Positions 19,616-35,642 of a stretch of 37,514 nt of DNA are shown here, piece by piece. Location of the stretch: the NCBI GenBank assembly GCA_023248095.1, contig JAHFFF010000002.1, forward strand, positions 2,717-40,230. Direction: 5' to 3'. This stretch comes from Candidatus Omnitrophota bacterium (GTDB lineage Bacteria > Omnitrophota > Gorgyraeia > 1-14-0-20-64-10). Numbering within the stretch: the stretch's first letter is position 1; every line of letters starts with the position of its first letter. The notes beneath the pieces are model-generated. The model saw nothing but the letters and a program-made list of their open reading frames with translations. It did not search any database and was not told the DNA's origin. A program made the position numbers and the translations under genes.

Positions 19616-19616
19616 G

Positions 19617-19690
19617 GGGCGATTAGCTCAGTTGGTTAGAGCACTTCCTTTACACGGAAGGGGTCGGAGGTTCGAGCCCTCCATCGCCCA
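19617..19690 (+). tRNA. tRNA-Val (anticodon TAC)
   Basis: Manual cloverleaf: acceptor GGGCGAT/ATCGCCC, D arm GCTC..GAGC, anticodon stem CTTCC/GGAAG with loop TTTACAC, T arm GGAGG-TTCGAGC-CCTCC, discriminator A. No encoded CCA. Confidence 0.9.
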
Positions 19691-19704
19691 TTTCTTCTTC
19701 AGCT

Positions 19705-20859
19705 TTATTTGATCAAATCCCCATAAGCCTTGCAGGCTCGTTGTCCGTACAACTCCCAAGAATACTGCTGTGCCTTCTTCCGTGCCGCCTCTGCCATGGA
19801 GACCTGGAGGGTAGCATCCCGATAAAGATTTTCGAGGCACTGCATCACCCGTTCCGGAGAACGCGCCGGAAGTACGAACCCCTCCCGCCCGTTTTCAATC
19901 AGATCTGGACCGCCTGAATTTTCTGTGCAGACGACGGGCAGCCCAGAGGCCATCGCCTCCAGTAGGACCATGCCGAATCCATCTTCAATGGAGCAGAGGG
20001 CAAACAGGGATCCCTGGGCATAAAGCTCGGCTAAACTTGCGTGGGGGTGCGGGGGAATCCAGCGGAAGGTCCCGGCGTATCGCTTCAGGATGGGGCGAGC
20101 CTCAGGCGCCACGGTACCAATGAGGCACAATTCCGACTGAGGCAGATGCAAGCGGGTGAATGCCTCCAGCAAGTCGTGGACCCCCTTTCGAAGGCTGATC
20201 GCTCCAACGTAGATCACCCGGAAGATTCCATCCGTTTTCGGGCGAGGATGGAATTGATGGATGTCTACGCCCAGCGGGATCTGCACCATTTTTTTGGCCT
20301 CTAGCCCTTCTTCCAGGAACGTCTTCTTCGCAAAGGTCGAGGGGACCACAATGAAATCAGCCTGCTCATACTCTCGCAGCTCCCGCTCCACAATTCCCGC
20401 CTCGGGCAACTCTCCGCGCAAACCGACCCGGGCGTACTCTTCCCGCAGCAGGCGTTCTTGCACGCGGATGTGGGAGGAAACTCTCTCGATGGCCGTCACC
20501 GCCCCGAGGCGCTTTGCCTGTACCAGCGTCTTCAGCGCAAAGCTGGACCACCCGATGTATAAGTCGCAGGGCCGCAAAGAAGCCGCCGCCTGGGCATCGT
20601 ACAATCGGTGAAGCTGAGCCTCGCTGAATAGGCGGAGTCCCCCAAATGGAAGAGACCGCTGGGCCCGATTGAGAAGCTCGGCGAAAATGAGGGAGGTCAC
20701 CCGCTCCGGGGGCAGGCCATCGGCCGCGGCAACCCATTTCGGGTAGCCGGTCAAGAGCTGCGACAGCCAGCCGCGCTGGTGGAAGGCGCGAGCCAACCGG
20801 TACGCGTGCCAGCGTCCGCCCGTCGAGATAGCGACCCGGTTAGGCTCGCCTAACGGCAT
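19705..20859 (-). CDS. Glycosyltransferase family 4
   Basis: 'EDGFGMVLLEAMASGLPVVCTENSGGPDLIENGREGF'. ATG at 20859 ('MPLGEPNRVAIS') overlaps the upstream stop by 10 nt. The track start at 21009 would overlap by 160 nt. Confidence 0.85.
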   Translation of the reverse strand: MPLGEPNRVAISTGGRWHAYRLARAFHQRGWLSQLLTGYPKWVAAADGLPPERVTSLIFAELLNRAQRSLPFGGLRLFSEAQLHRLYDAQAAASLRPCDLYIGWSSFALKTLVQAKRLGAVTAIERVSSHIRVQERLLREEYARVGLRGELPEAGIVERELREYEQADFIVVPSTFAKKTFLEEGLEAKKMVQIPLGVDIHQFHPRPKTDGIFRVIYVGAISLRKGVHDLLEAFTRLHLPQSELCLIGTVAPEARPILKRYAGTFRWIPPHPHASLAELYAQGSLFALCSIEDGFGMVLLEAMASGLPVVCTENSGGPDLIENGREGFVLPARSPERVMQCLENLYRDATLQVSMAEAARKKAQQYSWELYGQRACKAYGDLIK

Positions 20860-22193
20860 TTCAGCAATCGCTCGTAAAATCCAAGCAAGGCCTGCACATG
20901 ATTTTCCATGTTGCCGGGCGGACGCACCCCTGATTGAAGCTGCTTCAGCAAATCGGGCTCGGTCGCAATTCGCTGAAGACAACGCGCAAGGGCCCGCGCA
21001 TCCGCCCATGGGAAGAGCAATCCGTTCACGCCATCTTTCACAAGGGAGGGCAAGCTTCCCCAGCGGGGCCCAACCACCGGGATGCCCGCATGAAAGGCCT
21101 CCAGCGCCACCAGTGGCCCTGTTTCAAATGCAATCGATGGGACCACCACAACGTCCAGACCGGAAAAAACCTCAGCGAGATGAGCAGGTTCAAAGCTCCC
21201 TGCCAGTGCGACACGGGGATCGCGCTGAGCCAATGCCGCTACCAACGCTTGCACCTTCTTTTCCCGCTCCCCATGAGCCATCCCATAGAAGATGAACTGC
21301 AGCGGCAGCCGCTCAGGAATCTTCTGAATCGCCTGGACCAAAAGATGCGTCCCCTTCTCCGGGTGAAACCGGCCGATGCACCCTACGCGGATCACGGGAG
21401 ATTCCTTGCGGGTGATCGCAGCGGGGAGCTCTACGGCGTGGGGGATCATCTGGATGCGGCTCTCCGGCACTCCGTTGCGCAGTAACATCCCGCGTGTCTG
21501 GTCGGAGAAGGCATGCCAGCCGTCCACCTGTGAAATCAACCTATTCCAAGACCGAAGCTTGAGGCGGAACTGCCGCGTCAGTGAAAAGGCGGTGCCCATC
21601 TTGAATCTTAGTTCTCTCCCTCCGCTTTCTGTATTCGGCGAAGGGACGGCGCTGTCTCCCTGCCGCTCGGCCATCAGGGCCTTCACCTTGGTCAAACCAA
21701 AACAAACGCTGCACCGGCCTACGCGGACCTGGCCATCGCAAGGGTGATTCCATGCCTGCACAAAATCGCCGCGCGCACAAAGAAGCCCCGGATGGTGGAA
21801 ACTCATGGCCACCGGCAATCCCATCTGCTTGGCTGCCGTCACCAAGCTTCCCGAACAAACGGGGGAATAACCGTGCACATGCAACAGATCGTATGGGTTC
21901 CTCTTCAGCCATTCCCTCCACCAAGCGGTGAGGGCCTCCGCTTCCAGGCAGAGCAGCTCTTCCCAACGGAGGCCTTCGGTGCGGATGGAAAAAAAGTGGA
22001 CGGGGATCCCCTCGTAGTTTGTTTCTCGGATCTCAAACGGTGTGGTCGGGGAGCTTGTTGCCCTCGTTGTTCCGGCGACTACGGATACCGAGTGCCCAAG
22101 CCGGCGCAGGCCTCGGGCTGCGCCGGCCACGTAAACCTCCGTCCCGCCAAAACGCTCCGGGAAGAAGCAGTAGGTCGCCCACAGCATCCTCAT
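20850..22193 (-). CDS. Glycosyltransferase family 4 with a Cys4 insert (paralog of 16587..17912)
   Basis: 'MRMLWATYCFFPERFGGTEVYVAGAARGL' and 'ETGPLVALEAFHAGIPVVGPRWGSLPSLVKDGVNG'. Insert C-x12-C-x8-C-x2-C at about 21702-21779. Start could be 22193, 22187 or 22217. Confidence 0.8.
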   Translation of the reverse strand: MRMLWATYCFFPERFGGTEVYVAGAARGLRRLGHSVSVVAGTTRATSSPTTPFEIRETNYEGIPVHFFSIRTEGLRWEELLCLEAEALTAWWREWLKRNPYDLLHVHGYSPVCSGSLVTAAKQMGLPVAMSFHHPGLLCARGDFVQAWNHPCDGQVRVGRCSVCFGLTKVKALMAERQGDSAVPSPNTESGGRELRFKMGTAFSLTRQFRLKLRSWNRLISQVDGWHAFSDQTRGMLLRNGVPESRIQMIPHAVELPAAITRKESPVIRVGCIGRFHPEKGTHLLVQAIQKIPERLPLQFIFYGMAHGEREKKVQALVAALAQRDPRVALAGSFEPAHLAEVFSGLDVVVVPSIAFETGPLVALEAFHAGIPVVGPRWGSLPSLVKDGVNGLLFPWADARALARCLQRIATEPDLLKQLQSGVRPPGNMENHVQALLGFYERLLKCR

Positions 22194-22302
22194 CCGCTTA
22201 CCATCGCAGCAACGCATCTAAGGTACCACAAAAGAATCCCGGTCGCCTTCTTGCCTTGTGTTTCCACTCGGTGCCTGGTACCATTTTGATCGATTGCCTA
22301 CA

Positions 22303-22378
22303 GGGGCCGTGGTGTAGCCTGGTCTAACACGTCAGATTGTCAATCTGAAGACCGCGGGTTCAAATCCCGTCGGCCCCG
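22303..22378 (+). tRNA. tRNA-Asp (anticodon GTC)
   Basis: Acceptor GGGGCCG/CGGCCCC, anticodon stem TCAGA/TCTGA with loop TTGTCAA, T arm GCGGG-TTCAAAT-CCCGT, discriminator G. No encoded CCA. Confidence 0.9.
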
Positions 22379-22418
22379 TTTATAAACTTCGAAGCTGTGG
22401 TAAAGTAACTGCTTGACC

Positions 22419-23162
22419 ATGCAAGAGTTCCGCTGGAAAGACAGCCTCAGGTTGGTTCTGCCGCCTCTCCTAGTGGATATTTATCGGGCGGTTCTGATCC
22501 GCTCGGGTTACCGGGCGCCTCTGAGCGCATTGTTAAAGCTCCCCATTACACCCTTGGAAAAAATTTTCCCTGGCATTGGACAAGCAGAGATACAGATACC
22601 CTGTTCGCAGCTGAGTCGGGGACCGGGTGCCTTGCCGATGACAGAATACCTCTTCTTTTCTGCGATCTGCCGTTACCGGCAACCGCTCCGCGTTCTTGAG
22701 ATTGGAACCTTCCGGGGCTCAAGCACGCTGGCAATGGCAGTCAATTCGCCCGATAGGACAGAGGTATTCACGCTGGACCTGGATCCTTCGCACAAAAAAC
22801 CGACGAAGTACCCTCTGAACATTGGGGGGCTTGAAAACCATCCTTTCGCACCCGGGGAGCTGTTCCTGCAGACTCCCTACGCGAGAAAAATCCGCCAGCT
22901 TTACGGCGACTCCGCGTCGTTCGATTTTCAGCCGTTCTACGGCACGATGGACCTGGTCTTTATCGACGGCAACCACGGGTACGAGAACGTCCGCTCTGAC
23001 AGTGAGCAGGCTTTCCGTATGCTGCGTCCCGGAGGCCTCATCCTCTGGGATGACTACTACGACGCGTTTCCTTCCGTGGTGCGCTGCCTCAACGAAATCC
23101 ACGCCTCGCGGCCGCTTCTCCACATTGAGCGGAGCCGGTTGGTCCTCTATCTCTCCGCATGA
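22419..23162 (+). CDS. Class I SAM-dependent methyltransferase (O-methyltransferase family 3 / Methyltransf_24-like)
   Basis: 'VLEIGTFRGSSTLAMA', 'VFTLDLDP', 'DLVFIDGNHGYENV', 'LRPGGLILWDDY'. Start is ATG at 22419 or TTG at 22413. Confidence 0.8.
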   Translation: MQEFRWKDSLRLVLPPLLVDIYRAVLIRSGYRAPLSALLKLPITPLEKIFPGIGQAEIQIPCSQLSRGPGALPMTEYLFFSAICRYRQPLRVLEIGTFRGSSTLAMAVNSPDRTEVFTLDLDPSHKKPTKYPLNIGGLENHPFAPGELFLQTPYARKIRQLYGDSASFDFQPFYGTMDLVFIDGNHGYENVRSDSEQAFRMLRPGGLILWDDYYDAFPSVVRCLNEIHASRPLLHIERSRLVLYLSA

Positions 23163-23944
23163 GACTCTACGGTGTCTGCACCCCTTCTCACCAACCATTG
23201 CTACGGAACTGGCTGCTGCCTACCCTCCAAGATCCTTACGAACTGCGCATCCAATCGTACAACCAGATCGGCTCGGAGGAGCAGCATGTTTTCGGAACGC
23301 CCCAATTTATTCGGACGACGATGTTCAAATTGGACGTCGTGCTGAGAGCCCTTCGGGAAAACTGGGAAGATTTGTTCGTTTTCACTGACATGGACGTGCA
23401 GTTCTTTCGCCCCACCGAACTGCTGCTGCGCCGTTTGATCAATGGTTTCGACCTGCTCTTTCAACGCGATTCCCCGGAAGGGATCGCCTGCTCCGGGTTT
23501 CTACTGTGCCGGGCGACTCCGACCACTCTCCGCTTCTGGGAAAGCGTTCGGCGATACATGGAAACATTCCCCCAGAAAAACGACCAGGATGCCGTTAATG
23601 ACCTGCTCCTCATCGGGCGAGTGCGCCAGCAAAGATATCCCGGGTGGCAAGTGGTGAACCGGATTCTTGACATGGACAACCCAGCCAGTTTCAAGCTTCG
23701 AACCTTGGTCCGGTTCTTATTGAAGAAAAAAAACCAGTTCGGGCTTCGTTGGAACTATCTTCCGAACACGTTCATGAGCGGAGGAACGTTGACCGGCAGA
23801 CCCTGGAAACCCGGCATATCGCTGCCTGTGCCGCAAGGAATCATCCTTCACCACGCCAACTGGACTATCGGGATTGAAAACAAGATTGCACAGCTCCGCT
23901 TGGTGCGCCAAACGGTGGAGAGCCGCCGTGACAACCGAAAATAA
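23159..23944 (+). CDS. Nucleotide-diphospho-sugar transferase family protein (PF03407-like, GT-A fold with DXD)
   Basis: 'FVFTDMDVQFFRP', 'LLFQRDSPEGIACSGFLLCRATPTTLRFWESV', 'KNDQDAVNDLL'. ATGA overlap with the upstream methyltransferase. Confidence 0.6.
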   Translation: MRLYGVCTPSHQPLLRNWLLPTLQDPYELRIQSYNQIGSEEQHVFGTPQFIRTTMFKLDVVLRALRENWEDLFVFTDMDVQFFRPTELLLRRLINGFDLLFQRDSPEGIACSGFLLCRATPTTLRFWESVRRYMETFPQKNDQDAVNDLLLIGRVRQQRYPGWQVVNRILDMDNPASFKLRTLVRFLLKKKNQFGLRWNYLPNTFMSGGTLTGRPWKPGISLPVPQGIILHHANWTIGIENKIAQLRLVRQTVESRRDNRK

Positions 23945-24074
23945 CAAAAGCCGATTTGTGGTAGGCTGTAGCAATCAGGTCGCTATGAGAGATCGGGCTG
24001 CGGGTCCGACAGGTGGAGTTCCAAAATCGTCCCGTCGGGACTGTCGCGCCTCAACCGGAGGTTCCCAACAGCGG

Positions 24075-24773
24075 ATGCCGCTGATCCAAACGCCTGTTTC
24101 GGAGTTCGTCCTTCAGGAAACCTCTCTTAAAAGATTTTTTCGATCCATCACGCCAAAACCGCTATGGCGCCTGGGAGGAACCGCACTCCGCCGCACCGTC
24201 GGATGGCCACGCTACGCAGGGGAAACCTCCAGGGCTCGATCGCGCAGGAAACAGGAGGGTTTCTTTGAGAAATTCTGCCGCGGGAAAGGCCTGGACATCG
24301 GCTACGGTGGCGACCTCCTCTGCGGCAATTGCGTTGGCTGGGATTACGAGAAAGGCGATGCGCAATACTTAAACGGCATTGAAGATACCTCCTTCGATTT
24401 TGTCTATTCTTCCCACTGTCTGGAGCACATGGTCGACGCCCAAATCGCGCTTCGCCATTGGTGGCGGGTCCTCAAGCCGGGAGGGTACCTGATCCTGTTT
24501 GTTCCCCACCGGGACCTGTACGAGAGAAAGAAAATCCTTCCCTCCAATTGGAATCCGGACCACAAGCGTTTTTTCCTGGTTGAAAAAGACGATCCGCCAG
24601 ACACGGTCGGGCTGGTCCCGATGCTTCAACAAGCGCTCCCGGATGGCGAGATCTTGTATGCGAAGGAATGTGCCTTCGGTTATCGGGTCAACCAGGACGG
24701 ATATCCGATGGGGGAATACTCGATAGAAGCGGTCGTGAAGAAACCTCGCCCTGGAGAAGCCCTGCATGGGTAA
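24075..24773 (+). CDS. Class I SAM-dependent methyltransferase (Methyltransf_11/23-like)
   Basis: 'GKGLDIGYGGDLL', 'DFVYSSHCLEH', 'VLKPGGYLILFVPHRDLYE'. ATG at 24075 follows GGAGG; in-frame alternatives are 23985 and 23874. Confidence 0.75.
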   Translation: MPLIQTPVSEFVLQETSLKRFFRSITPKPLWRLGGTALRRTVGWPRYAGETSRARSRRKQEGFFEKFCRGKGLDIGYGGDLLCGNCVGWDYEKGDAQYLNGIEDTSFDFVYSSHCLEHMVDAQIALRHWWRVLKPGGYLILFVPHRDLYERKKILPSNWNPDHKRFFLVEKDDPPDTVGLVPMLQQALPDGEILYAKECAFGYRVNQDGYPMGEYSIEAVVKKPRPGEALHG

Positions 24774-25509
24774 TAACCGCTCGCAATACCTGGCGCGGCA
24801 AAAGGCGTTCTGGAACGTCACGGACGAGAAGATCGCTACATACCAGCGCATCTACGCCGATGGGACTGGGTCGGAAATCCGCTGCCGTACGCATACCCAA
24901 CAATCCCTGGCTCATATACTCGAAGGAATACACCCCCAGTCGGATTGGACCCTCTTGGAAATCGGGTGCGGAAATGGGCGCTTGATGCTCGAATTGAGCC
25001 GTCTCTTTCAGTTCCAACGCCTTATTGGCATTGACATTTCCGAGTCCATGATTTCCTTCGCGCGGAAAAATTTAGCCTACGACCCAAGGGTTGAATTATT
25101 TGTAAACAGCGGGTGCGATCTGGCTATGGTGCAGGATGATTTCGTCGATTTCGCATATGCCAATGATGTCTTCATTCATTTGTTCGACTACGACATTATC
25201 GTCGGCTATTTCCGCGAGGTTCACCGGGTTCTGAAAAGAAACGGCGTATTCCGTTTTAACATCAATCGATTTGACCCCGACACGGCGTTTGGAAACTCTC
25301 TAGGTGGCCGGTTCGCCAAATTCATGTATCGGTGTGGGCTGCGGTCTGCAGGCCGACACCGGTGGGAACCGCGTCAAGGAACGGGGTTCCATGGGAACCA
25401 GTTTATGATTCGAGAGATCCGCCACGCCCTCAAGCAGGGGTTCTTTCCCGTTGCCGAAATCCACCCGGAGGACATTTATCTCTGGTGTACCGTTCGAAAG
25501 ATTCAATAA
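24766..25509 (+). CDS. Class I SAM-dependent methyltransferase
   Basis: 'LLEIGCGNGRLMLEL', 'LIGIDISESMISFARKNL', 'FAYANDVFIHL', 'VLKRNGVFRFN'. 8-nt overlap with the upstream gene. Confidence 0.8.
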   Translation: MGNNRSQYLARQKAFWNVTDEKIATYQRIYADGTGSEIRCRTHTQQSLAHILEGIHPQSDWTLLEIGCGNGRLMLELSRLFQFQRLIGIDISESMISFARKNLAYDPRVELFVNSGCDLAMVQDDFVDFAYANDVFIHLFDYDIIVGYFREVHRVLKRNGVFRFNINRFDPDTAFGNSLGGRFAKFMYRCGLRSAGRHRWEPRQGTGFHGNQFMIREIRHALKQGFFPVAEIHPEDIYLWCTVRKIQ

Positions 25510-25515
25510 TTACCG

Positions 25516-26328
25516 ATGATAAAACGGCTTCGACGCCACATCACAGCCGCACTTAGAGGCATCTCTCCCCGGGAATTTGAAAACCCCAGGGCCCCCTGGA
25601 GGATAAGCCCCCAGGTGACAAGGCTCATTGAACAATTGCAGCCCTACACGTTGAATGACCCCATGCGGTTGTCTCTGCTCTATGGACTGGCGCGCGAAAT
25701 CTGCGAAAGCAAACTGGCTGGCGACATTGTCGAGTGTGGCGTATGCAAGGGGGGTTCCGCCGCCCTCATGGCGACCGCAATAGCCCATTGTCCCAACCAT
25801 CGCATTTGGCTCTACGATACATTCGAGGGAATGCCTCCCCCGGGCCCAAAGGATGCCCCGCTTGCGAAAACCGAAACAGGACGGCTTGCCGTAGGTACAG
25901 AACCCCTCCTTACGCTGTTCCATAAGATTCGGTTCCCGCAAGATCGCATGGTGCTTCGCAAGGGCCTTTTCCGTGACACCTTCAGGGAGCCGCTGCCCAG
26001 CAGGATTGCCTTATTGCATATCGATGCCGACTGGCACGATAGCGTACTTTCTGCATTACAGACGTTCTATCCTGCCGTCGTTGACGGGGGCTGGATTGTC
26101 TTGGACGATTTTGGCCACTGGGAAGGCGCGCGCAGAGCCTTTTACGATTTCTGTCGAACACAGTCCGTCGAGCCCCTGTTGGAACGGGTGGGCTACACGC
26201 AAGCCCTCTGGTGTAAGGGGAGGGAAACTAACCGAGAAACGGTGGGTGCTTATTGCTATGGCATTTACCAACCTGGAAGACAGCCTGTTTCAGATCGCCC
26301 GCCGCATTGCCCCCCAGTAGAAACGTGA
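25516..26328 (+). CDS. TylF/MycF (macrocin O-methyltransferase) family methyltransferase
   Basis: 'GDIVECGVCKGGSAALMA', 'WLYDTFEGMPPP', 'LLHIDADWHDSVLSAL', 'GGWIVLDDFGHWEGARRAFYDF'. Confidence 0.85.
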   Translation: MIKRLRRHITAALRGISPREFENPRAPWRISPQVTRLIEQLQPYTLNDPMRLSLLYGLAREICESKLAGDIVECGVCKGGSAALMATAIAHCPNHRIWLYDTFEGMPPPGPKDAPLAKTETGRLAVGTEPLLTLFHKIRFPQDRMVLRKGLFRDTFREPLPSRIALLHIDADWHDSVLSALQTFYPAVVDGGWIVLDDFGHWEGARRAFYDFCRTQSVEPLLERVGYTQALWCKGRETNRETVGAYCYGIYQPGRQPVSDRPPHCPPVET

Positions 26329-27285
26329 AAACACCAGTTGGGGGTGACGCAGCAGCAACCGCAGGAGGCGCGGGAGTTGGCCCTCTCCCTGGGCCATAGA
26401 GCGGCTAATCTGATTCGGCAGGCTATTCCATTCCATCTGCTGCTTGAGAATGAACCTCTCCAAGGGGTGAAGGGACGGAAGGACTGCCCTGCATAAGTGT
26501 TCTGCCTCTTCCATCACCTGCGGCATGTCCTTGATCATCTTCGCCTGGGGATGGCTCAGACAGCGGGAAAGGATGGCGTCCATCGAGACGATCTTGAGTT
26601 GTCCCCGCCGAGCACACATCAGCTGAAGGTAGAGGGCCCAGTCGAAGACGTACTGCAGCTCTTCCCTCACTCCACCCACTTCACGAACGAGCGAGAGCCG
26701 AAGAAAGGCCGATGGCTGTGCGATTTCTAGGCCCTCTTGGGAGTGCCAAAGAAAATCGAGGACATTCCTCGGCGCGCGCGGTTTCCATCGCCTCAGAACA
26801 CGCCGGGAAGAGGCCTCGATGGTAACGGCTTCCCCTAACAAAAAATCGGGCTGATGGAGACGCCACCTCCTGCCCACCTCCACCAGAGCCCCTGGTTGCA
26901 ACTGATCATCTGAATTCAACCAGTTGAAGATTTCCCCACGGCAGCGGGTAATCCCCTTGTTGACCCCCTGTGCCTGGCCGGTGTCTTTCTCGCTGACCCA
27001 AAACGAAAGCCATTTCTCATACTTCCTTAAGATCTCCACGGAGTCGTCGGTGGATCCCCCATCGATCACAACGTACTCCAGATTGGGGTAGCCCTGCAGC
27101 AAAACCGACCGAATCGTTTCCTCGATGAATCGGCCGTAGTTGTAGTTGGTCGTCACAATGCTGATGAGCGGCCAGGGATCCCCCGTTGGAGTTTGGTCAG
27201 GGAGAGGGGTGCTTGCTTCGGTCCACGGCCAACCGCTCCTTCCGGCGGGGGCCGGTGGGATTTCCTCCAGCCGCGGGCATCTCAC
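26290..27285 (-). CDS. Glycosyltransferase family 2
   Basis: 'ISIVTTNYNYGRFIEETIRSVLLQGYPNLEYVVIDGGSTDDS', 'DTGQAQGVNKG', 'WLNSDD'. GTG start in a GTGA overlap with the upstream giant gene. Its 3' end overlaps the convergent TylF-like gene by 39 nt. Confidence 0.85.
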   Translation of the reverse strand: MRCPRLEEIPPAPAGRSGWPWTEASTPLPDQTPTGDPWPLISIVTTNYNYGRFIEETIRSVLLQGYPNLEYVVIDGGSTDDSVEILRKYEKWLSFWVSEKDTGQAQGVNKGITRCRGEIFNWLNSDDQLQPGALVEVGRRWRLHQPDFLLGEAVTIEASSRRVLRRWKPRAPRNVLDFLWHSQEGLEIAQPSAFLRLSLVREVGGVREELQYVFDWALYLQLMCARRGQLKIVSMDAILSRCLSHPQAKMIKDMPQVMEEAEHLCRAVLPSLHPLERFILKQQMEWNSLPNQISRSMAQGEGQLPRLLRLLLRHPQLVFSRFYWGAMRRAI

Positions 27286-30281
27286 GAGGCCTTCCTCCGC
27301 AGCTCATATCTTCTCAGGGACAGCCAGCTCATCGCAACGTACCATCCGTAGAAAAAACTGAGGAAGATTCCCTGGGCTCCTCCCCACAACCCCCGATGGT
27401 GAAGGAGGTTAGATTTGATCCCCCGGGCTGTCTCCAAGGCCATGGCGCCCCAGGAAAACCGCTCCCCCGTCTCATAGCGGGCCTCCCCTTCCTGTGCGAT
27501 GTAACGCCAATGCTTCTGAAAAAGCTGCCGGTAGGAATCCATCCAGTCGTGCCGGATGAAATTCTCCTCCGTCGGCGTGATTCGAATCACAGCCTCCTGC
27601 CCAGGCACCTCCATGCCCCGATGAACATACGGGTGCAGCCGGACGATTCCCCTCCGGATCAAGATCCTTTTCCACTTATCCTTCCCCCCCCACACCGAAT
27701 GATCCAACGGCTGGCCTTTGAAGAAAAATCTCCAGGGAGCCTCCACCGCCGCCGCCATCGGGTTCCTTCGAGCCGCCTCCTGAAGTTGGGCCGCCAGACC
27801 GGGTGGAATCGCCTCATCCGGATCCAAGAGCAGCACCCAGTCGTTTTTAATCTGGGCGAGGGCAAACTGACGGACTTGCTCCACCACCGGAACCCGTGCA
27901 TGGCGAATAACCTTAGCGCCAAACTGGCTGGCGATTCGGGCAGAGGCATCTCGCGATTCCAGATCCACCACGACGATCTCGTCGCAAAACACAAGACTGG
28001 CCAGACAGCGCGGCAACCAGCGCTCCTCATTGCAGACAACCACCACCGCACTGATCCTAGCGGGGGGCAGAAAGGTCTTCGTTCCGGTTCCCAAAAAGCG
28101 GTCCATCTGCCGCACATCCTCCAGGTCCTTGAGTCCTCCTCGCTTTCTTTTCATCTCACGGACGATTCGAAGGGAGGCAAATTTCATGCCGTCGTAATAA
28201 AAATGGTTCTCCGGATTGAACAGGATGTCGTCCAGACCGGTGACATGGTTGTGCATTTCCTCGTTGTGACTACTGATGTCAGGGGTGCCCGACCTCACCC
28301 CTTCATAGCCGGATTGAAGGAAATCCAGATCGTGGACGTCGCGAATACCGTAGACAGCAAGGATGGCGCTGCTGTCCAGACAGAAGCGCTCCGAATCGGC
28401 TCCAATTCGTCCTAACCATTCTTTGTACATAGTGAAAAGTCGCTCGAAGGTGGGGTGGTGCTGGGGACGGGCCGAGTTAAAGAAATGGATGCTGTTTTCA
28501 TTGAGAAGCGCCCTCGCCAGTCGGAGGGTTCCTTCGTGCGTATCGTTCACATGGACGGCGTCGTTCCCAATGCCGAAAAGGTGTCGAACCCTTTCCTTCA
28601 TTTCCCGGAGACGCCCTGGTTGGTCCGACTGAAGGACAAAAATCCGCAGAGGACCCTCCTTCTGAAAGCAGGCCTCCATCTTGCTGCGAGCCCCCGCGAA
28701 GCTGTTCTCCCATCCTCCCAACCATTTCTCGCTGGCGTAAATCAGGCGGATCAAAAGCACGGGGCCCTCATTCTTCAGGGGTATATCCTTGCGGTAATAG
28801 ATGCGGCAGTACTCCCGTAGAATCTCCTCGATCTCCTCGTCCCGCCCGGATGCAGATGGGAAAACGATCGCCAAGAAACTGTCCTCCCGCAAACGGCAGT
28901 ATTCCAGTGCCATGGCGTCGCTCCATTTCGTCTGCAGACCTCTTCGGCCAAAAATGGCGTAGTCGAAATTCTGGTATTTCATATCCACCGAAAGACACGG
29001 AACATCCCGATCATAAAGGAGGCAGGCTGCCACCCGGTGAGACCCATCGATGACCACGTTGTCCCGGTCGATCGGAACCCACGAGAGATCTTCTCGGGCC
29101 CCTTCCTGCCGGACAGAGTCCAGGATTTGGTCGAATGCCTGCAGGAAAGCGGACAGCCCTATTTTTCCAGAGCTGTCCCCCTCCACGAACTCGTTGAATG
29201 CCTGCAGGTGCGCCGCGTAGAGCTGTCTGCCCCAGTCACTCTGTATTCGCAGGTGCCGATGCTTGGCATAGATGTATTTCGCCATCAGATCAAACCGCCT
29301 CTCGCTGAGCAAGGACCGCGGGTCCAGGGTAAGGTACCGCAGGCGACACGGACGCGCGAGAAGGGGTACCAAGGTGGGATTCAGCTTCGAAGCAGCTTCG
29401 GCGGCGGTCACTTCTCGGGGCTGGCCAGGTTCCCGAAGAACCATGGACTGGCCCCCTTTCTCCATAAAAAGGTCTTGCCCGTTATCCAAAAAGAGGGCAT
29501 TCCCCTGGCTCTTCAGAAACGCGAGAATGGCCGCGCGGTCCTGTCCGTACTCCACCACCAGCATCTGCGGCGCAAACCGGGAGAAGTCCAGACTTTGAAG
29601 AACAGCCAGGTTAAACCCCTCCGTGTCGATGGAAATCAGATCGACATCCTTCACCCCCTGCTCTTCCAGAAGCTGGGTTAAATTCCAAACAGGCACCCTT
29701 TCCTTCCGCCAGCGGGGAGCATAGGATTTCCATCGATCTTTCTCGCTTTCCACGAACGTTGCAACGTCGCTGCCCCACTCCGGCAGATGTGGATAGGAGG
29801 AAACGTGTATGTCTGCTTCGCCGGTCACCGGACCGATGGCGCCATGAACGCACCGAACCGGAAAACCGCGGTAGGACCGCTGGAGCTTCTTGAAATTCGA
29901 ACGGACCGGCTCGATTGAAATCCCCGCCCAACCATGCCGTTCCGCCAGGCGCCGCACGTTGCTGTAATGAACACCGTCGAACGCCCCCACCTCGACGAAG
30001 AACCTGCAACGCGGCGGATGGCTTCTGAAGTAGCCCTCGATGACCTCGTCCTGACCGGATTGAGCGTAAAACCCCCGCATCTGCTTGGGAAACTCACGAG
30101 CAAACCAGAATTCCGGCTGGAGAATCATCACGGCGGCACAGGCCCTCTCGGCCAGGGAATTCCAGCCGAGCCTGTGGAACAACTTCGCCGCCAACCAAAG
30201 GAGCCGCCACAATCCCAGAAAATTCAGGAAGCGGCTCCTCCTCAGGAGCCCTTTCAATATCCGACGCAAGCGGGGCTTCAC
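27282..30281 (-). CDS. Multidomain protein: N-terminal hydrophobic segment, FkbM-family methyltransferase, about 430 aa unassigned central region, C-terminal GT2 (WaaE-like)
   Basis: FkbM domain: 'FVEVGAFDGVHYSNVRRLAERHGWAGISIEPVRSNFKKLQRS' and 'VDLISIDTEGFNLAVLQSL' (about 29544-30005). GT2 domain: 'ISAVVVVCNEERWLPRCLASL..IVVVDLESRD', 'LLLDPDEAIP' (about 27354-28058). The centre contains 'VIDGSHRVAAC' and 'SSAILAVYGIRDVHDLDF'. Preferred start is the GTG at 30281 (GTGA overlap with the TagF-like stop, GGGGAGAG upstream). The track start at 30353 would add 24 aa. Confidence 0.8.
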   Translation of the reverse strand: MKPRLRRILKGLLRRSRFLNFLGLWRLLWLAAKLFHRLGWNSLAERACAAVMILQPEFWFAREFPKQMRGFYAQSGQDEVIEGYFRSHPPRCRFFVEVGAFDGVHYSNVRRLAERHGWAGISIEPVRSNFKKLQRSYRGFPVRCVHGAIGPVTGEADIHVSSYPHLPEWGSDVATFVESEKDRWKSYAPRWRKERVPVWNLTQLLEEQGVKDVDLISIDTEGFNLAVLQSLDFSRFAPQMLVVEYGQDRAAILAFLKSQGNALFLDNGQDLFMEKGGQSMVLREPGQPREVTAAEAASKLNPTLVPLLARPCRLRYLTLDPRSLLSERRFDLMAKYIYAKHRHLRIQSDWGRQLYAAHLQAFNEFVEGDSSGKIGLSAFLQAFDQILDSVRQEGAREDLSWVPIDRDNVVIDGSHRVAACLLYDRDVPCLSVDMKYQNFDYAIFGRRGLQTKWSDAMALEYCRLREDSFLAIVFPSASGRDEEIEEILREYCRIYYRKDIPLKNEGPVLLIRLIYASEKWLGGWENSFAGARSKMEACFQKEGPLRIFVLQSDQPGRLREMKERVRHLFGIGNDAVHVNDTHEGTLRLARALLNENSIHFFNSARPQHHPTFERLFTMYKEWLGRIGADSERFCLDSSAILAVYGIRDVHDLDFLQSGYEGVRSGTPDISSHNEEMHNHVTGLDDILFNPENHFYYDGMKFASLRIVREMKRKRGGLKDLEDVRQMDRFLGTGTKTFLPPARISAVVVVCNEERWLPRCLASLVFCDEIVVVDLESRDASARIASQFGAKVIRHARVPVVEQVRQFALAQIKNDWVLLLDPDEAIPPGLAAQLQEAARRNPMAAAVEAPWRFFFKGQPLDHSVWGGKDKWKRILIRRGIVRLHPYVHRGMEVPGQEAVIRITPTEENFIRHDWMDSYRQLFQKHWRYIAQEGEARYETGERFSWGAMALETARGIKSNLLHHRGLWGGAQGIFLSFFYGWYVAMSWLSLRRYELRRKAS

Positions 30282-31552
30282 ACCCAATCTCTCCCCTGAA
30301 GACAGCGGCTTAATTCCACGGCCTTCGCCCAACGCGCAGACTGTGGGCCGCACATCCTTCCCAAGGTGAGAAGGACCCTCACAACACGCTGGGCTGCCTC
30401 GCCCGCATACGGAAGAAAGGCCTTCTTCAATCTAAGTCTCCCTATCCGATGCCGCTCCGGGTGCCCCAGCGCGTGACGGCACTTCTCCGCCAGTCCTTCC
30501 AAGTCGGTAAAAGAATCCGCACCCTCTCGATACATCTGGTGCACCTGAGGGTCGAAGAAGGAAAATTGCGGATTGTCGAAAAATAGAATGGGACGGTCGA
30601 GGAGGGTGAATTCTATCAGGATGGAGCTGTGATCGGCCATCAGCAGGTCGGCCGCATTGAGATAGGGCATCTCGTTCTCATCCTGCAGAACTCGGAAGTG
30701 TGGATGCCGTCTCTGCAAAGACTCCAGTTCTTCTAGCGCAAGTGACTGGGTCGGCGAATCCTCCGCATGAATCCTTATCCAGAATCCCTCATGGGCAATC
30801 TGAATGACATTGTACTCACTCGCCTCTCGTAGTAACCGATGGGCAACCTCTGCCCCCCAAGCCCCCAAGAGGGACTGGGGACACCAGTGGCTGCTGATCA
30901 GAATCGTTTTGCGGTTCGTCGGGAGCCCAAGGTTACTCAAGGTTTGCTCTCTGGAGAATCTCCCCTGGATCAGCGCATCCCCCTTGGGGAACCCCACAGG
31001 GAAGAAAAGGCGGGATCCATCAGCAAACAGCGGTGGCGCCGCATTTCGTAAATAGGACAGCTCAGCCTCCGAGAAACCGAAATAGAGCCGGAATTGGGGA
31101 CTTGCGGCCCTTTTAATCGAGTCTGTTTCGATACCAAAGCCGGTGCCATGATTCAAGAATGTGTGGGTCGAATCCCGAAGGAACCATTTATCGCACAGGT
31201 GTGGATAAATAACGTAATGCCACTTGGATAAACTGGCCCAGACCCTACTCACTCCGTACTTCTTCCAAACCGCGTTGAATTCTGCCGTGGGGGGCATCCT
31301 TCCACCGACCGTCATCAGAAGACCGATCTGGACGGCTGGCTCCTGCTTGAGTGCCTCGATTACAGGGAGAGCGCTGTAGAAACCATTTGGCGTACTGAGC
31401 ACAAATAGGATACGGAGCGGACCGATTCTCTCGTAGAGGGCATCATCGATTCGACGCAGGAGGGCGCCAATCCGGCTGTCCCGGAGGCCCTTCAGGCGTT
31501 TGACGAACCGTTTGGATATCTCCACAGGCTTTAGTTTACCAGAAGAAATCAA
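30278..31552 (-). CDS. CDP-glycerol glycerophosphotransferase family protein (TagB/TagF-like)
   Basis: C-terminal 'NAADLLMADHSSILIEFTLLDRPILFFDNP' (the family's 'DYSS...D.P.i.F' region) and 'ILISSHWCPQSL'. Apparent TTG start. Confidence 0.65.
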   Translation of the reverse strand: MISSGKLKPVEISKRFVKRLKGLRDSRIGALLRRIDDALYERIGPLRILFVLSTPNGFYSALPVIEALKQEPAVQIGLLMTVGGRMPPTAEFNAVWKKYGVSRVWASLSKWHYVIYPHLCDKWFLRDSTHTFLNHGTGFGIETDSIKRAASPQFRLYFGFSEAELSYLRNAAPPLFADGSRLFFPVGFPKGDALIQGRFSREQTLSNLGLPTNRKTILISSHWCPQSLLGAWGAEVAHRLLREASEYNVIQIAHEGFWIRIHAEDSPTQSLALEELESLQRRHPHFRVLQDENEMPYLNAADLLMADHSSILIEFTLLDRPILFFDNPQFSFFDPQVHQMYREGADSFTDLEGLAEKCRHALGHPERHRIGRLRLKKAFLPYAGEAAQRVVRVLLTLGRMCGPQSARWAKAVELSRCLQGRDWV

Positions 31553-31639
31553 ACCTGCTAAAATAAGCGTCGTGGTTTCCCCTGAAAGGTTCCGCCACTC
31601 TAAGAGGCGCTTGTCCGTTTACCCCGGGTATCGTGTCGA
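31553..31639. promoter_or_regulatory. Divergent intergenic region between the TagF-like operon (-) and gmd-fcl (+) (promoters presumed)
   Basis: 87-nt non-coding gap between divergent gene blocks. No confident promoter hexamers identified. Confidence 0.3.
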
Positions 31640-33594
<1,955 letters not shown>

Positions 33595-33620
33595 CCCTGG
33601 AACTTTTTCCAGAGGGTTTT
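33595..33620 (+). terminator. Candidate intrinsic terminator after fcl
   Basis: CCCTGGAA-CTTT-TTCCAG(A)GG hairpin (8 bp with one bulge) followed by G-TTTT, immediately after the fcl stop codon. The T tract is short. Confidence 0.4.
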
Positions 33621-33639
33621 ACACATTTGGGGAACTTGA

Positions 33640-35535
33640 ATGGCAGACGAAAGAGAATTTGATCTCTCCGATGAGGGGCAGGCCCCGCACCACATCGTCC
33701 AGATAGATAAAGAGGGGCTGATGCGGGTCTTAAGGACCCGGGACCTCTTTGCCCTCGGGTTCAGCGACGTCGGCTCCTCCATCTATTACGCCCTGGGGGT
33801 CACCACCCTCTACGCCCTGGGAGCAACCCCTCTTGCCCTGGCCCTGGCCGGCATCGCCTTCTTCTGCACCACCCTGACCTACGCCGAGATGGCCTCCGCT
33901 CTGCCGGAGGCCGGCGGTTCTGCCAGCTTCGCACGGCATGCCTTCAACGATCTAGTTTCCTTCATTGCCGGCTGGGCCCTTCTCCTGGATTACATCGTGA
34001 CGATCGCGATCTCCGCCTTCACCGTGGGCCCATACCTGGCTTATTTCTTCCCGCCCTTAAAGCTGGCCTTCGCAAATATCCCCTTCAGCCTGATGGTGCT
34101 GGGAGTGCTTCTCACCCTCAACATCATCGGGATCAAGGAGTCCACCCGTATTTCGCTGCTCCTGTGCCTCTTTGCCATTGCCACCCAGTTGACGATCATC
34201 GTCATCGGCGCGCTGTTCCTGCTTAATCTGCCTTACCTAGCACACCACATGCGAATCGGGGTATTGGGAATGGATTGGTCCCCGACGTGGCCTCAGTTCT
34301 GGAAGGGGGTCTCGATGGCCATGGTGGCCTACATCGGGATTGAGTCCATCGCCCAGTTGGGGGGGGAGGCGCGTCGGCCTGGTCGAACAGTTCCTCGCGC
34401 AATGCTGCTGACGATGGCAACCCTGTTCGTGATGTACTTTGGAATCTCGACCATCGCCCTCTCTGCCATCCATCCGAAGATTCTTTCCACCCAGTATCTG
34501 GCGGATCCGCTGGCTGGAATCGCCGCCGCCTTGCCGGTGGGAAGTCGATTCCTAGCGCCGTGGGTTGGGATTTTGGGAGCCACCATCCTGTTCGTGGCGG
34601 CCAACGCCGGATTGATCGGCGCCTCCCGGATGACCTTCGCCATGGGGGAATACTATCAGGTCCCAAGGGTCTTCTACCGGCTCCATCCCAAGTTCAGGAC
34701 GCCGTATGTTTCCCTAGCGATGTTCGCCGGGCTGGCGGCCATCGTGATCCTGGTCGCCAAGCAGCTGACCTTTATCGCCGATCTTTACAATTTCGGCGCG
34801 ATGCTGGCCTTCAGCCTGGCCCATCTTTCCCTGTTGGGTTTGCGGGTACGCCAGCCGAATCTTGAGCGGCCGTTCAAGATCCCCTTCAACATTAGGTTCG
34901 GCCGAAGCAAGCTGCCGATCACCGCCATCATCGGTTTGCTGTCCACCATCGCCGTCTGGATCGACGTCGTGATCAGCAAGCCGGCCGGCCGGAATCTCGG
35001 CTTCGTCTGGATGGGGGTCGGCCTGATCTGCTATCTCGCCTACCGCAAGAAACAGCGGATCTCTGCCACCGGCCGCGTGGAGATCGAACGGGTCAAGATG
35101 CCGGAGTTTGAGGCGCTGAAAACCCGAAGAATCCTGGTGCCTACTCTCGGGGGGACCTATACGGAGAACCTGCAGATGGCCTGCGAATTGGCCAAGACCC
35201 GCGGGGCGGATGTTACCGCTTTGTACGTGATCGAAATCCCCGCCACCCTTCCGCTCGATACCTTTTTGCCGGACCGGCTGGCCGACGCGGACGTGGCCTT
35301 GAAAAGGGCTCAGGCCATCGGACGAGAGTTTGAAGTGGCGGTAGCCACCAACCTCCTGCAGGCTCGATCGGCAGGGCAGGCGATTGTGGACCTGGCCAAG
35401 GAGAAAAAGTACGACGCGATCATTATGGGAACCTCTTACCGTCGCGGCGCCTCCGCCTGGCTCGGGGCCACGACGGAGTACGTCATCCGCAACGCCCCCT
35501 GCCGGGTCCTGATCTGCAAAGCCGCCACGAAGTGA
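33640..35535 (+). CDS. APC-superfamily amino acid/polyamine permease fused to a C-terminal universal stress protein (USP) domain
   Basis: About 12 hydrophobic helices with 'GSSIYYALG' and 'LTYAEMASALPEAGGSASF'. C-terminal 'ILVPTLGG..ALYVIE...AIIMGTSYRRGASAWLGATTEYVIRNAPCRVLI' (USP ATP-binding type motif). Confidence 0.85.
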   Translation: MADEREFDLSDEGQAPHHIVQIDKEGLMRVLRTRDLFALGFSDVGSSIYYALGVTTLYALGATPLALALAGIAFFCTTLTYAEMASALPEAGGSASFARHAFNDLVSFIAGWALLLDYIVTIAISAFTVGPYLAYFFPPLKLAFANIPFSLMVLGVLLTLNIIGIKESTRISLLLCLFAIATQLTIIVIGALFLLNLPYLAHHMRIGVLGMDWSPTWPQFWKGVSMAMVAYIGIESIAQLGGEARRPGRTVPRAMLLTMATLFVMYFGISTIALSAIHPKILSTQYLADPLAGIAAALPVGSRFLAPWVGILGATILFVAANAGLIGASRMTFAMGEYYQVPRVFYRLHPKFRTPYVSLAMFAGLAAIVILVAKQLTFIADLYNFGAMLAFSLAHLSLLGLRVRQPNLERPFKIPFNIRFGRSKLPITAIIGLLSTIAVWIDVVISKPAGRNLGFVWMGVGLICYLAYRKKQRISATGRVEIERVKMPEFEALKTRRILVPTLGGTYTENLQMACELAKTRGADVTALYVIEIPATLPLDTFLPDRLADADVALKRAQAIGREFEVAVATNLLQARSAGQAIVDLAKEKKYDAIIMGTSYRRGASAWLGATTEYVIRNAPCRVLICKAATK

Positions 35536-35551
35536 TACAATAGCGCATCCT

Positions 35552-35623
35552 GCCGAGGTAGCTCAGTGGTAGAGCGCGGCTCTGAAAAAGCCGGCGTGGG
35601 CAGTTCGATTCTGCCCCTCGGCA
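35552..35623 (+). tRNA. tRNA-Phe (anticodon GAA)
   Basis: Acceptor GCCGAGG/CCTCGGC, D arm GCTC..GAGC, anticodon stem CGGCT/AGCCG with loop CTGAAAA, T arm GGCAG-TTCGATT-CTGCC, discriminator A. No encoded CCA. Confidence 0.9.
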
Positions 35624-35642
35624 CAACACCTTCTGAAAGTCC

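Follow-up and report, generated by a model that had tools for sequence, protein, structure and literature searches.

The five genes located downstream of the tRNA-Asp gene in the stretch of Candidatus Omnitrophota DNA examined here (37,514 nucleotides, hereafter the window) probably constitute a decoration module of a Wzm/Wzt-dependent surface-polysaccharide pathway, serving O-methyl decoration or capping. We base this reading on the family assignments of all five genes and on the context of the locus, in which Wzm/Wzt, many glycosyltransferases and gmd/fcl are encoded. On the present sequence comparisons, the cassette is an ordinary accessory module with a patchy distribution. The host is an uncultured groundwater bacterium with a small genome, the assembly of which is 79% complete.

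The cassette is surrounded by a large ABC-transporter-dependent polysaccharide locus that contains genes for Wzm/Wzt, about ten glycosyltransferases (GT4/GT2), a carbamoyltransferase, Gmd and an Fcl-like protein. The genes for Wzm, an ABC-2 permease, and Wzt were identified with Pfam and NCBIfam at 9666..11191 (plus strand), and those for Gmd (GDP-mannose 4,6-dehydratase) and the Fcl-like GDP-L-fucose synthase, which would supply a 6-deoxyhexose, with NCBIfam at 31640..33594 (plus strand). Gmd scored 531 bits against an NCBIfam equivalog cut-off of 415. The best NCBIfam match of the Fcl-like protein was Fcl at 303.7 bits, below the cut-off of 500, and the deoxyhexose could therefore differ from L-fucose. 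The first-pass annotation had suggested a multiply O-methylated deoxyhexose polymer; a glycan with multiple O-methyl groups is a reasonable product, and the deoxyhexose is retained only as something that it may contain.

The five gene families proposed in that annotation were all recovered by Pfam, and the genes are co-directional. The first gene (22419..23162, plus strand, with an alternative TTG start at 22413) encodes a cation-dependent family 3/Methyltransf_24 O-methyltransferase of 247 amino acids, here called MT24 (PF13578, 59.5 bits; PF01596, Methyltransf_3, 31.1 bits), which contains the motifs EIGTFRGSS, FIDGNH and LWDDYY and whose matches in the PDB are family-3, cation-dependent O-methyltransferases. 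It showed 69% identity to the copy in locus L112 of a relative and 41% identity to the TylF-adjoining gene in locus L023.

The second gene (23159..23944, plus strand) encodes a DxD nucleotide-sugar transferase of 261 amino acids that belongs to the PF03407 family (54.9 bits in Pfam), a family that includes the plant GT77 enzymes RGXT, RRA and XEG113. The protein matches most of the Pfam domain and represents a bacterial form that is short (about 250 amino acids) and lacks a membrane anchor; its nearest relatives are metagenomic proteins. It has a GT-A fold and probably a retaining mechanism: the DxD and HH residues (D77, D79, H231 and H232) are invariant across 42 homologs, the AlphaFold2 model has a GT-A fold with a pLDDT of 89.3, and the 50 Foldseek matches listed include the retaining GT-A enzymes LH3 glucosyltransferase, glycogenin, BoGT6a, LARGE1 and XXYLT1.

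The third gene (24075..24773, plus strand) encodes MT11, which is a small SAM methyltransferase of class I (about 232 amino acids; Methyltransf_11/23 in Pfam). Its reading frame is open from position 23874 and the recorded gene call starts at 23985, but the ATG at 24075 is the most likely start, since GGAGG is located 12 nucleotides upstream and the homologs are 207 to 240 amino acids long. A spacer of about 130 nucleotides would thus separate MT11 from the PF03407 gene. Of the overlaps described earlier, the ATGA at 23159 and the 8 nucleotides shared by MT11 and MT25 at 24766 were confirmed, whereas the one placed at the start of MT11 was not. More than 1,000 MT11 homologs in this size range, with 52% to 67% identity, were spread over phyla, and the family is not confined to glycan loci, one of its genes being located in L117 with parB on one side and metK-ahcY on the other, which means that the target of MT11 may not be a sugar.

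The fourth gene (24766..25509, plus strand) encodes MT25, a class I SAM methyltransferase of 247 amino acids (Methyltransf_25, 66.1 bits; also Methyltransf_11), for which only 6 homologs were obtained at E ≤ 1e-10 (94%, 55%, 51%, 48%, 45% and 44% identity). After a 6-nucleotide spacer follows the gene for a TylF-family metal-dependent sugar O-methyltransferase of 270 amino acids (25516..26328, plus strand; PF05711, 123.1 bits), whose non-conserved C-terminal tail overlaps a convergent GT2 gene by 39 nucleotides. In alignments with NovP and MycF (PDB 2wk1, 4x7u and related entries), which covered about 150 to 165 residues, the metal-binding Asp motifs HIDAD and LDD were in register and the SAM loop was aligned. 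The TylF/MycF/NovP proteins belong to the same Pfam family, but the E-values were just 1e-14 to 1e-10, and the context in the window is a polysaccharide locus rather than a PKS or aminocoumarin cluster.

Next to the cassette on the minus strand (26290..30353; Pfam) are the convergent GT2 gene and a gene for a fusion protein of 1023 amino acids, composed of an FkbM methyltransferase, an unassigned centre and a GT2 domain; the FkbM domain had been recognized previously and agrees with Pfam. The gene at 18009 had no match in Pfam or NCBIfam, and was placed with class I methyltransferase clusters in the ESM Atlas (feature score 0.98 to 0.99, structure TM 0.77). The 5 to 6 methyltransferase domains counted in the first-pass annotation hence correspond to 5 certain and 1 probable domain. 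They were said to be unusually many for one glycan, but 4 methyltransferase genes are located within 20 kb in L113, another PF03407-bearing locus, and three O-methyltransferases per-methylate one terminal fucose in the PGL-tb of Mycobacterium tuberculosis (PMC3594219).

In the pathway that we propose, assembly of the glycan by the GT4 and GT2 enzymes of the locus would take place at the cytoplasmic face, on a lipid carrier, and the PF03407 GT-A transferase would add a side or terminal sugar, probably alpha-linked, from a nucleotide sugar. MT24 and the TylF-type enzyme, both metal-dependent, would methylate sugar hydroxyls, most plausibly on a 6-deoxyhexose such as fucose from gmd/fcl, and the metal-independent class I enzymes MT11 and MT25 would attach further methyl groups. 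The TylF-type enzyme, probably together with MT24, would most likely methylate the non-reducing terminal residue, yielding a cap that blocks elongation. We infer substrates, positions and order of methylation only from family membership and gene neighbourhood.

The location of the methyl groups at the non-reducing end of the glycan is suggested by the nearest TylF relatives, many of the best-matching of which are encoded directly after a Wzt with a long C-terminal tail. A gene for Wzt with a C-terminal tail of 149 to 227 amino acids was located directly upstream, on the same strand, in 22 of the 80 loci of the closest TylF relatives, and 20 of these 22 relatives rank among the 28 best matches. 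All 5 tails tested matched Wzt_C (PF14524), 4 of them above the cut-off, and the gene order in L023 was Wzm-Wzt_C-TylF-MT24. Such an arrangement resembles the cap-dependent ABC O-polysaccharide pathways represented by WbdD and Wzt-CBM in E. coli O8/O9a and by the CPA TET operon in P. syringae, which share with the window the Wzm/Wzt transporter, cytoplasmic assembly by multiple glycosyltransferases and one or more SAM methyltransferases encoded in the locus (PMC3482155, PMC7820976). The methyltransferase WbdD controls the chain length of the O antigen (PMC3482155), and in the TET operon transport, elongation and termination are served by Wzm/Wzt together with a glycosyltransferase and an O-methyltransferase (PMC7820976). 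Unlike WbdD, a kinase/methyltransferase with a coiled-coil ruler, the methyltransferases in the window are small, have a single domain each and belong to the TylF and family-3 types, and the cassette differs from these pathways in encoding four methyltransferases plus the PF03407 transferase.

Although the TylF clade normally follows a Wzt_C-bearing Wzt, the Wzt in the window (243 amino acids) consists of the nucleotide-binding domain only and has no Wzt_C domain. The assembly, which is 79% complete, likewise yielded no Wzt extended at its C terminus, and the classical pairing of an enzyme that writes the cap with a transporter that reads it is therefore missing here. It is therefore possible, though clearly less probable than a cap, that the methyltransferases decorate only internal repeat-unit sugars or side branches, with effects on antigenicity and recognition by phages or predators, and play no role in termination. 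A glycosyltransferase inside the cassette would suit a side branch, and the methyltransferases of the P. aeruginosa CPA locus do not act like the WbdD terminator (PMC3560663). Against this stands the nearest TylF subclade, which is overwhelmingly found right after transporters of the Wzt_C-bearing, cap-recognising type.

The tRNA-Asp(GTC) gene (22303..22378, plus strand; ARAGORN) matched its counterparts in relatives at 74% to 96% identity, and at 98.7% in L112. It is preceded by tRNA-Val(TAC) and two minus-strand GT4 genes (19617..22217), which fill a Val-Asp gap that is just 20 to 130 bp in most relatives. In four relatives, a LAGLIDADG-type ORF is located in this gap. The right-hand anchor (33640..35624, plus strand) consists of an amino-acid permease/Usp fusion, the counterpart of which in genome G010 shows 82.6% identity, and tRNA-Phe. 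The order tRNA-Val, tRNA-Asp, tRNA-Phe was recurrent among the relatives, with tRNA-Asp as a conserved anchor. The distance from tRNA-Asp to the permease was 1.6 kb in G010 versus 11.2 kb in the window, and other methyltransferase genes directly follow tRNA-Asp in G008, G010 and G011.

We found no sign of a recent insertion at the tRNA gene, and the acquisition at tRNA-Asp proposed previously was not upheld: neither an integrase or recombinase gene nor a repeat of the tRNA 3' end was found in the window. It is unlikely that the cassette arrived recently as a genomic island and integrated at this site, even though its G+C content is at the 2.4th percentile of the 4-kb windows in the genome (sd 1.8 points), at least 10 phyla are intermingled in the TylF tree, PF03407 was not detected in any of the 19 other genomes of the family or the 150 genomes of the class that were searched, and a large serine recombinase gene abuts and overlaps tRNA-Asp in L112, indicating that the tRNA gene can serve as an integration site in the group. 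The 60-nucleotide counts that had suggested a low-G+C cassette were correct (43.3% and 63.3%) but unrepresentative and overstated the contrast, as the G+C content was 55.0% for the cassette, 57.6% for the window and 59.3% for the genome. Within the cassette, G+C was lowest for MT25 (0.52), and the five genes ranked at the 1st to 11th percentile for total G+C, the 6th to 30th for GC3 and the 5th to 41st for synonymous codon fit, so that codon usage was within the range of the genome and GC3 not outlying. Nor is the dip confined to the cassette: G+C is just as low in gmd and fcl (4th and 2nd percentiles) and across most of the glycan locus.

An older origin is indicated by L112, from a closer relative, in which the order is GT4g, TylF-MT24-PF03407, GT2b-FkbM/GT2, between the same flanking genes as in the window. 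Identities ranged from 58% to 74% overall and from 62% to 74% for TylF, MT24 and PF03407, the divergence of the cassette matching that of its neighbours (67% for the convergent GT2 and 71% for the FkbM-GT2 fusion, in the same relative position), and the TylF copies of the window and L112 were sisters in the tree (SH-aLRT 96). The cassette copies in L112 have a host-like G+C content of 0.64 to 0.69, and the tRNA-Val/Asp pair is located about 7 kb downstream; the core thus predates its present place beside the tRNA gene. MT11 was not present in L112, and an MT25 homolog (48% identity) was located elsewhere. TylF-like and MT24-like genes were identified in 16 and 8 of the 150 class genomes, respectively. 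The distribution among relatives, that of PF03407 included, is that of an accessory, patchy cassette, and in L112 no tRNA gene adjoins the core.

We suggest that at least one related lineage shares the core (TylF, MT24 and PF03407, beside GT2b and the FkbM-GT2 fusion), an accessory module of old age, and that in the window lineage TylF has shifted to the 3' end, with MT11 and MT25 between PF03407 and TylF. The glycan super-locus straddles the conserved tRNA-Val/Asp/Phe trio, the gaps carrying genus-specific glycan genes, often for methyltransferases. Conserved flanks, genus-specific glycan genes and a G+C content slightly below that of the genome are also seen in O-antigen, capsule and 'glycotype' islands, from which the window differs in having as anchors three tRNA genes that are scattered through the locus.

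It is very improbable that the cassette acts instead on a natural product or small glycolipid, tailoring its sugars as is done in Nod factors, in mycobacterial PGL/GPL or for macrolide deoxysugars: the closest solved TylF relatives are the antibiotic deoxysugar O-methyltransferases NovP and MycF, and the locus contains gmd/fcl and a NodU-like carbamoyltransferase, but the latter reached only 149 bits where the NCBIfam cut-off for NodU is 1000, genes for a PKS, an NRPS, a chitin synthase of the NodC type or a lipid core are lacking in the window, and about ten GT4/GT2 genes with Wzm/Wzt fit a polymer. Ojeda and co-workers reportedly described in 2010 that the O antigen of Rhizobium etli CE3 carries O-methylated fucose residues, and the same logic of clustered methyltransferases and deoxyhexose supply applies there and in PGL-tb. 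In the latter, glycosyltransferases and a supply of 6-deoxyhexose accompany several separate methyltransferases (Rv2954c, Rv2955c and Rv2956) in one cluster, and the methyltransferases act on one fucose, methylating different hydroxyls sequentially (PMC3594219), as may happen in the window if its acceptor is fucose. PGL-tb is a glycolipid of M. tuberculosis, whereas the product in the groundwater bacterium would be an exported polymer. O-methyl decoration or capping of ABC-exported polysaccharides is an already-known kind of system, and the cassette is probably a further member of it.

The window was found to represent a single large glycan locus. The genes located before the cassette code for a Wzc-like ATPase, a Wzy-like membrane protein, a GT2 protein, a carbamoyltransferase, a GT4-GT9 fusion protein, an SDR protein, and a GT4 protein, and the locus also contains genes for Wzm and Wzt, AsnB, a CgeB-like glycosyltransferase, 5 further GT4 proteins, and a GINT1_N-like protein. 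On the 3' side, the cassette is followed by genes for a GT2 protein, an FkbM-GT2 fusion protein, a TagF-like protein, Gmd, and an Fcl-like protein, after which come a permease/Usp fusion gene, the gene for tRNA-Phe, and a gene for a CAAX protease. The gmd gene scored above the NCBIfam equivalog cut-off, whereas fcl was the best match for its gene but fell below the cut-off. The Wzm and Wzt proteins matched ABC2_membrane and ABC_tran, respectively, and the best NCBIfam match for the ATPase was Wzt/RfbE. The genome is a metagenome-assembled genome (MAG) of 1.68 Mb from groundwater metagenomes, 79% complete, with a bacterial tmRNA (179.7 bits), and the class to which the organism belongs comprises more than 50 families with genome sizes of 0.9 to 2.2 Mb.

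Three tRNA genes were identified in the window with ARAGORN: tRNA-Val(TAC) at 19617-19690, tRNA-Asp(GTC) at 22303-22378, and tRNA-Phe(GAA) at 35552-35624. The cassette starts 40 nt past the tRNA-Asp gene and consists of 5 genes, all on the plus strand, here called MT24 (22419-23162; Pfam Methyltransf_24 and Methyltransf_3), PF03407 (23159-23944; Pfam PF03407 Nucleotid_trans), MT11 (open reading frame 23874-24773; Pfam Methyltransf_11/23), MT25 (24766-25509; Pfam Methyltransf_25/11), and TylF (25516-26328; Pfam TylF). Between the cassette genes, the overlaps (ATGA and 8 nt) and the spacer of 6 nt agreed with the first-pass annotation, except at the third gene. The initial 67 codons of the MT11 reading frame were non-coding in appearance, its homologs are 207 to 240 amino acids long, and a GGAGG motif is located 12 nt before the ATG at position 24075. 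The gene is therefore likely to span 24075-24773 and is predicted to encode a protein of about 232 amino acids, after a spacer of about 130 nt. The glycine-rich SAM loop was retained in all 4 methyltransferases of the cassette. In a scan of 22200-26500 for sigma-70 promoters and intrinsic terminators, the number of sites did not exceed that in shuffled sequence.

It was also noted that the PF03407 gene contains a run of 8 adenines at 23726-23733. The contig from run X1 that crosses this stretch differed from the window in only 2 letters, and no length variant was seen among the listed pieces, rare variants being beyond the reach of the contigs. The last 39 nt of TylF (26290-26328) are shared with the 3' end of the convergent GT2 gene, and the C-terminal tail of TylF, about 25 residues, showed no conservation in homologs, which fits a relocation of the gene to its present site.

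The TylF protein scored 123.1 bits against PF05711 (cut-off 23), with profile positions 68 to 263 of 264 aligned, and its motifs ECGVCKGG (residues 73-80), HIDAD (168-172), and LDD (196-198) were in register with ETGVWRGG, MDGD, and VDD in NovP. According to the paper on the NovP structure, the glycine loop is said to bind SAM and the aspartate residues (D-x-D and DD) to bind the metal. The protein is thus a member of the TylF O-methyltransferase family, for which SAM- and Mg2+-dependent O-methylation of a (deoxy)sugar hydroxyl is predicted. The MT24 protein matched PF13578 with 59.5 bits (cut-off 26.3) and PF01596 with 31.1 bits (cut-off 22), and its PDB matches were 2hnk, at 2.6e-06, and other cation-dependent family-3 O-methyltransferases, which places it by family among the cation-dependent class I O-methyltransferases.

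The PF03407 protein matched its profile with 54.9 bits (cut-off 22), and a sequence search of the PDB gave no match. Residues D77, D79, H231, and H232 were invariant in 42 homologs, and Foldseek searches with the AlphaFold model (pLDDT 89.3) retrieved retaining GT-A enzymes, namely the LH3 glucosyltransferase domain, glycogenin, BoGT6a, LARGE1, and XXYLT1, with a probability of 1.00 and TM scores of 0.45 to 0.50 for the best-fitting matches. The profile match, the invariant DxD motif, and the placement in the GT-A fold bear out the previous description of this protein as a DXD nucleotide-sugar transferase, and its structural neighbors GT8, GT6, and LH3 would imply a retaining mechanism. The homologs elsewhere were all located in glycan loci, with a methyltransferase gene adjacent in 3 of 6, a context that fits the addition of a sugar, either in a side branch or at the terminus, followed by its methylation.

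The MT11 protein belongs to a very widespread family of methyltransferases of about 215 amino acids whose conservation is unusually high, with more than 1000 matches at 52% to 67% identity, including homologs in Zixibacteria, Planctomycetota, and an archaeal MAG of the Methanomassiliicoccales. Since genes of this type occur both inside glycan loci (as in locus L115) and between parB and metK-ahcY (locus L117), the target of MT11 is the least certain among the cassette enzymes. The MT25 protein is rare, with a single match at 94% identity and the next at 55%. Another gene in the locus, at 18009-18629, encodes a protein of 206 amino acids that gave no match to Pfam and NCBIfam profiles but was placed among class I methyltransferase clusters of the ESM Atlas (feature score 0.98 to 0.99, structure TM score 0.77), and is probably a sixth methyltransferase-fold protein of the locus.

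To place the TylF enzyme in a genomic context, we examined 80 genome loci with its closest relatives. A gene for a Wzt homolog with a C-terminal tail of 149 to 227 amino acids was located directly upstream of TylF on the same strand in 22 of these loci, 20 of which were within the 28 best TylF matches. All 5 tails tested matched Wzt_C (PF14524), 4 of them above the cut-off. The best TylF match was found in L023, a locus in an Abditibacteriales MAG with the gene order Wzm, Wzt_C, TylF (55% identity), MT24 (41%), and GT4, in which Wzt (5180-6481) is followed by TylF at 6570-7283. In many phyla, genes of the subclade nearest to the TylF of the window lie immediately 3' of a gene for a Wzt_C-bearing Wzt. 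In the TylF tree, the copies of the window and of L112, a contig of a closer relative, grouped together (SH-aLRT 96) within a clade of 29 sequences from at least 10 phyla.

In the pathway for the O9a antigen in E. coli, WbdD writes a terminal modification that is then read by the exporter Wzt (PMC3482155), and the TET operon of P. syringae represents a further pathway of this kind (PMC7820976). The Wzt_C-TylF gene pairing in the loci of the TylF relatives is a genetic signature of such pathways. Because this is the signature of a cap that is written and read, TylF, probably together with MT24, would methylate the non-reducing end of the glycan.

A serious alternative is that the methyltransferases decorate internal residues. 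This is favored by the finding that the Wzt of the window (243 amino acids) matched ABC_tran only, with Wzt_C (PF14524) not found, and that no Wzt with a carbohydrate-binding domain was found in the 79%-complete assembly. For the same reasons, any cap that these enzymes might write would not be read by the transporter in the established manner. End methylation remains the reading to which the gene pairing points, and with either target we interpret the cassette as an accessory module of an already known kind, serving to O-methylate and glycosylate an ABC-exported surface polysaccharide. Membership in a Nod-factor pathway was rejected, as the carbamoyltransferase scored 149 bits against a NodU cut-off of 1000 and a chitin-oligomer synthase is missing from the window.

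The number of methyltransferases, previously considered unusually high for one glycan, did not stand out. L113, a Logan contig (SRR22388337) of a distant organism with a GC content of 50%, contained 4 methyltransferase genes in 20 kb, and a single fucose in PGL-tb is modified by 3 O-methyltransferases (PMC3594219). The genes in common between L113 and the window encode the PF03407 protein (45% identity), GT4e (53%), GT4d (48%), AsnB, an FkbM enzyme, a CgeB-like glycosyltransferase, a GT2 protein, and several class I methyltransferases. This common toolkit points to a heavily methylated glycan of a recurring, so far uncharacterised type.

The GC content was 59.3% for the genome, 57.6% for the window, and 55.0% for the cassette, which corresponds to the 2.4th percentile among 956 genome-wide 4-kb windows. 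Compared to 989 long open reading frames in the genome, the 5 cassette genes ranged from the 1st to the 11th percentile in GC content, from the 6th to the 30th in GC3, and from the 5th to the 41st in synonymous codon fit. The spot counts of 43% and 63% on 60-nt lines, cited earlier as consistent with acquisition, were numerically right but exaggerated the contrast. Since gmd, fcl, and most of the glycosyltransferase genes in the locus had comparably low GC values (the value for the conserved permease gene was high), the dip is more likely the mild depression usual in polysaccharide loci than a foreign signature specific to the cassette.

The 3 tRNA genes are conserved across the family, with a gap of 20 to 130 bp between tRNA-Val and tRNA-Asp in most relatives. 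The gene order in genome G010 is tRNA-Val, tRNA-Asp, a segment of 1.6 kb, the permease (82.6% identical), tRNA-Phe, and the CAAX protease, whereas the corresponding gaps in the window are 2.6 kb between tRNA-Val and tRNA-Asp, with 2 GT4 genes, and 11.2 kb between tRNA-Asp and the permease. In other genera, glycan genes also flank the tRNAs, and the slot after tRNA-Asp often contains methyltransferase genes of other types: 2 in genome G008, one in G010 that is 68% identical to one of these, and a gene for an FkbM enzyme in G011. None of them was orthologous to a cassette gene, the best match being 36% identity over 39 amino acids. The pair shared by G008 (L010:8192-9085) and G010 (L012:9164-9925) represents an orthologous class I methyltransferase that is unrelated to the cassette and was not found in the window's own genome.

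The gap between tRNA-Val and tRNA-Asp contained a LAGLIDADG_3 reading frame, co-directional with the tRNAs, in 4 genera of the family (L015:8929-9927 in G013, L022:8969-9958 in G001, L009:9202-10011 in G005, and L021:717-1706 in G003). The predicted proteins were about 330 amino acids long in 3 cases and 269 amino acids in L009, with 48% to 71% identity among themselves. This reading frame was not present in the window, where the gap holds the 2 GT4 genes, nor was it found elsewhere in the genome.

The cassette was missing beside tRNA-Asp in 14 relatives, but the closest relative L112 (GCA_964522725.1), located through a PF03407 protein with 76% identity, has the core in the same gene order away from the tRNA. 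The genes in L112 encode GINT1_N (63%), GT4g (58%, minus strand), TylF (62%), MT24 (69%), PF03407 (74%), GT2b (67%, minus strand), and FkbM-GT2 (71%, minus strand), followed by Fcl (66%), an MT25-like protein (48%), an SDR protein, tRNA-Val, tRNA-Asp (98.7%), and a serine recombinase. The core, that is TylF, MT24, and PF03407, thus has the same flanking genes as in the window, with a divergence similar to theirs, no tRNA gene adjacent to it, and a GC content of 0.64 to 0.69, like that of the contig. The TylF gene precedes MT24 in both L112 and L023; in the window it occupies the 3' end and is separated from PF03407 by MT25 and by MT11, a gene that L112 lacks. The large serine recombinase (L112:11868-13364, minus strand; Resolvase, Recombinase, and Zn_ribbon_recom domains) overlaps with its 3' end the tRNA-Asp gene (L112:11831-11909), which seems to be used by a mobile element in L112.

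This comparison indicates that the core is older than the split of the window and L112 lineages and has been ameliorated in each, and that it came to lie beside tRNA-Asp in the window by a later rearrangement. The module is accessory: PF03407-like genes were found in none of 19 other genomes of the family and none of 150 other genomes of the class, while TylF-like and MT24-like genes occurred in 16 and 8 of the 150, respectively. As the TylF clade mixes at least 10 phyla, horizontal acquisition at some earlier time is likely, judging from the tree. In a search of the source metagenomes for strains lacking the cassette, the region was covered by run X1 contigs that differed in 0 to 2 letters per listed piece, and no listed joint skips the cassette; since contigs cannot show absence, this speaks neither for nor against such strains. 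The joints from tRNA-Val to tRNA-Asp in the source metagenomes were from other organisms and rested on about 30 nt of tRNA.

We consider it very improbable that the tRNA-Val/Asp/Phe trio is a recombination scaffold for the exchange of glycan modules, in which a conserved LAGLIDADG-type endonuclease in the Val-Asp gap of at least 4 genera makes or made double-strand breaks and in this way causes nearby glycan genes to be replaced, with the GT4 pair and the cassette of the window as exchange products. Integration at tRNA-Asp, as proposed in the first-pass annotation, was not upheld, as there was no integrase or recombinase domain in any scanned open reading frame of the window, no repeat of the final 25 nt of tRNA-Asp with up to 3 mismatches, and no relevant direct repeat in 19500-36000 bounding the cassette or the segment from tRNA-Asp to the permease, and the core in L112 is not adjacent to a tRNA.

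O-methyl sugars make surface glycans more hydrophobic, block elongation, and alter how phages, predators, and lectins recognize them. It is otherwise ordinary biology for a variable polysaccharide locus to carry an accessory module for decoration, and the main points of interest are the association of Wzt_C with TylF, as a possible marker of cap-writing methyltransferases, and a locus that is interspersed with tRNA genes and varies slot by slot. The window represents a case in which an enzyme of the cap-writer type persists without a cap-reading exporter, and the identification of O-methyl writers in uncultured groundwater bacteria helps to read "glycotype" diversity from metagenomes.
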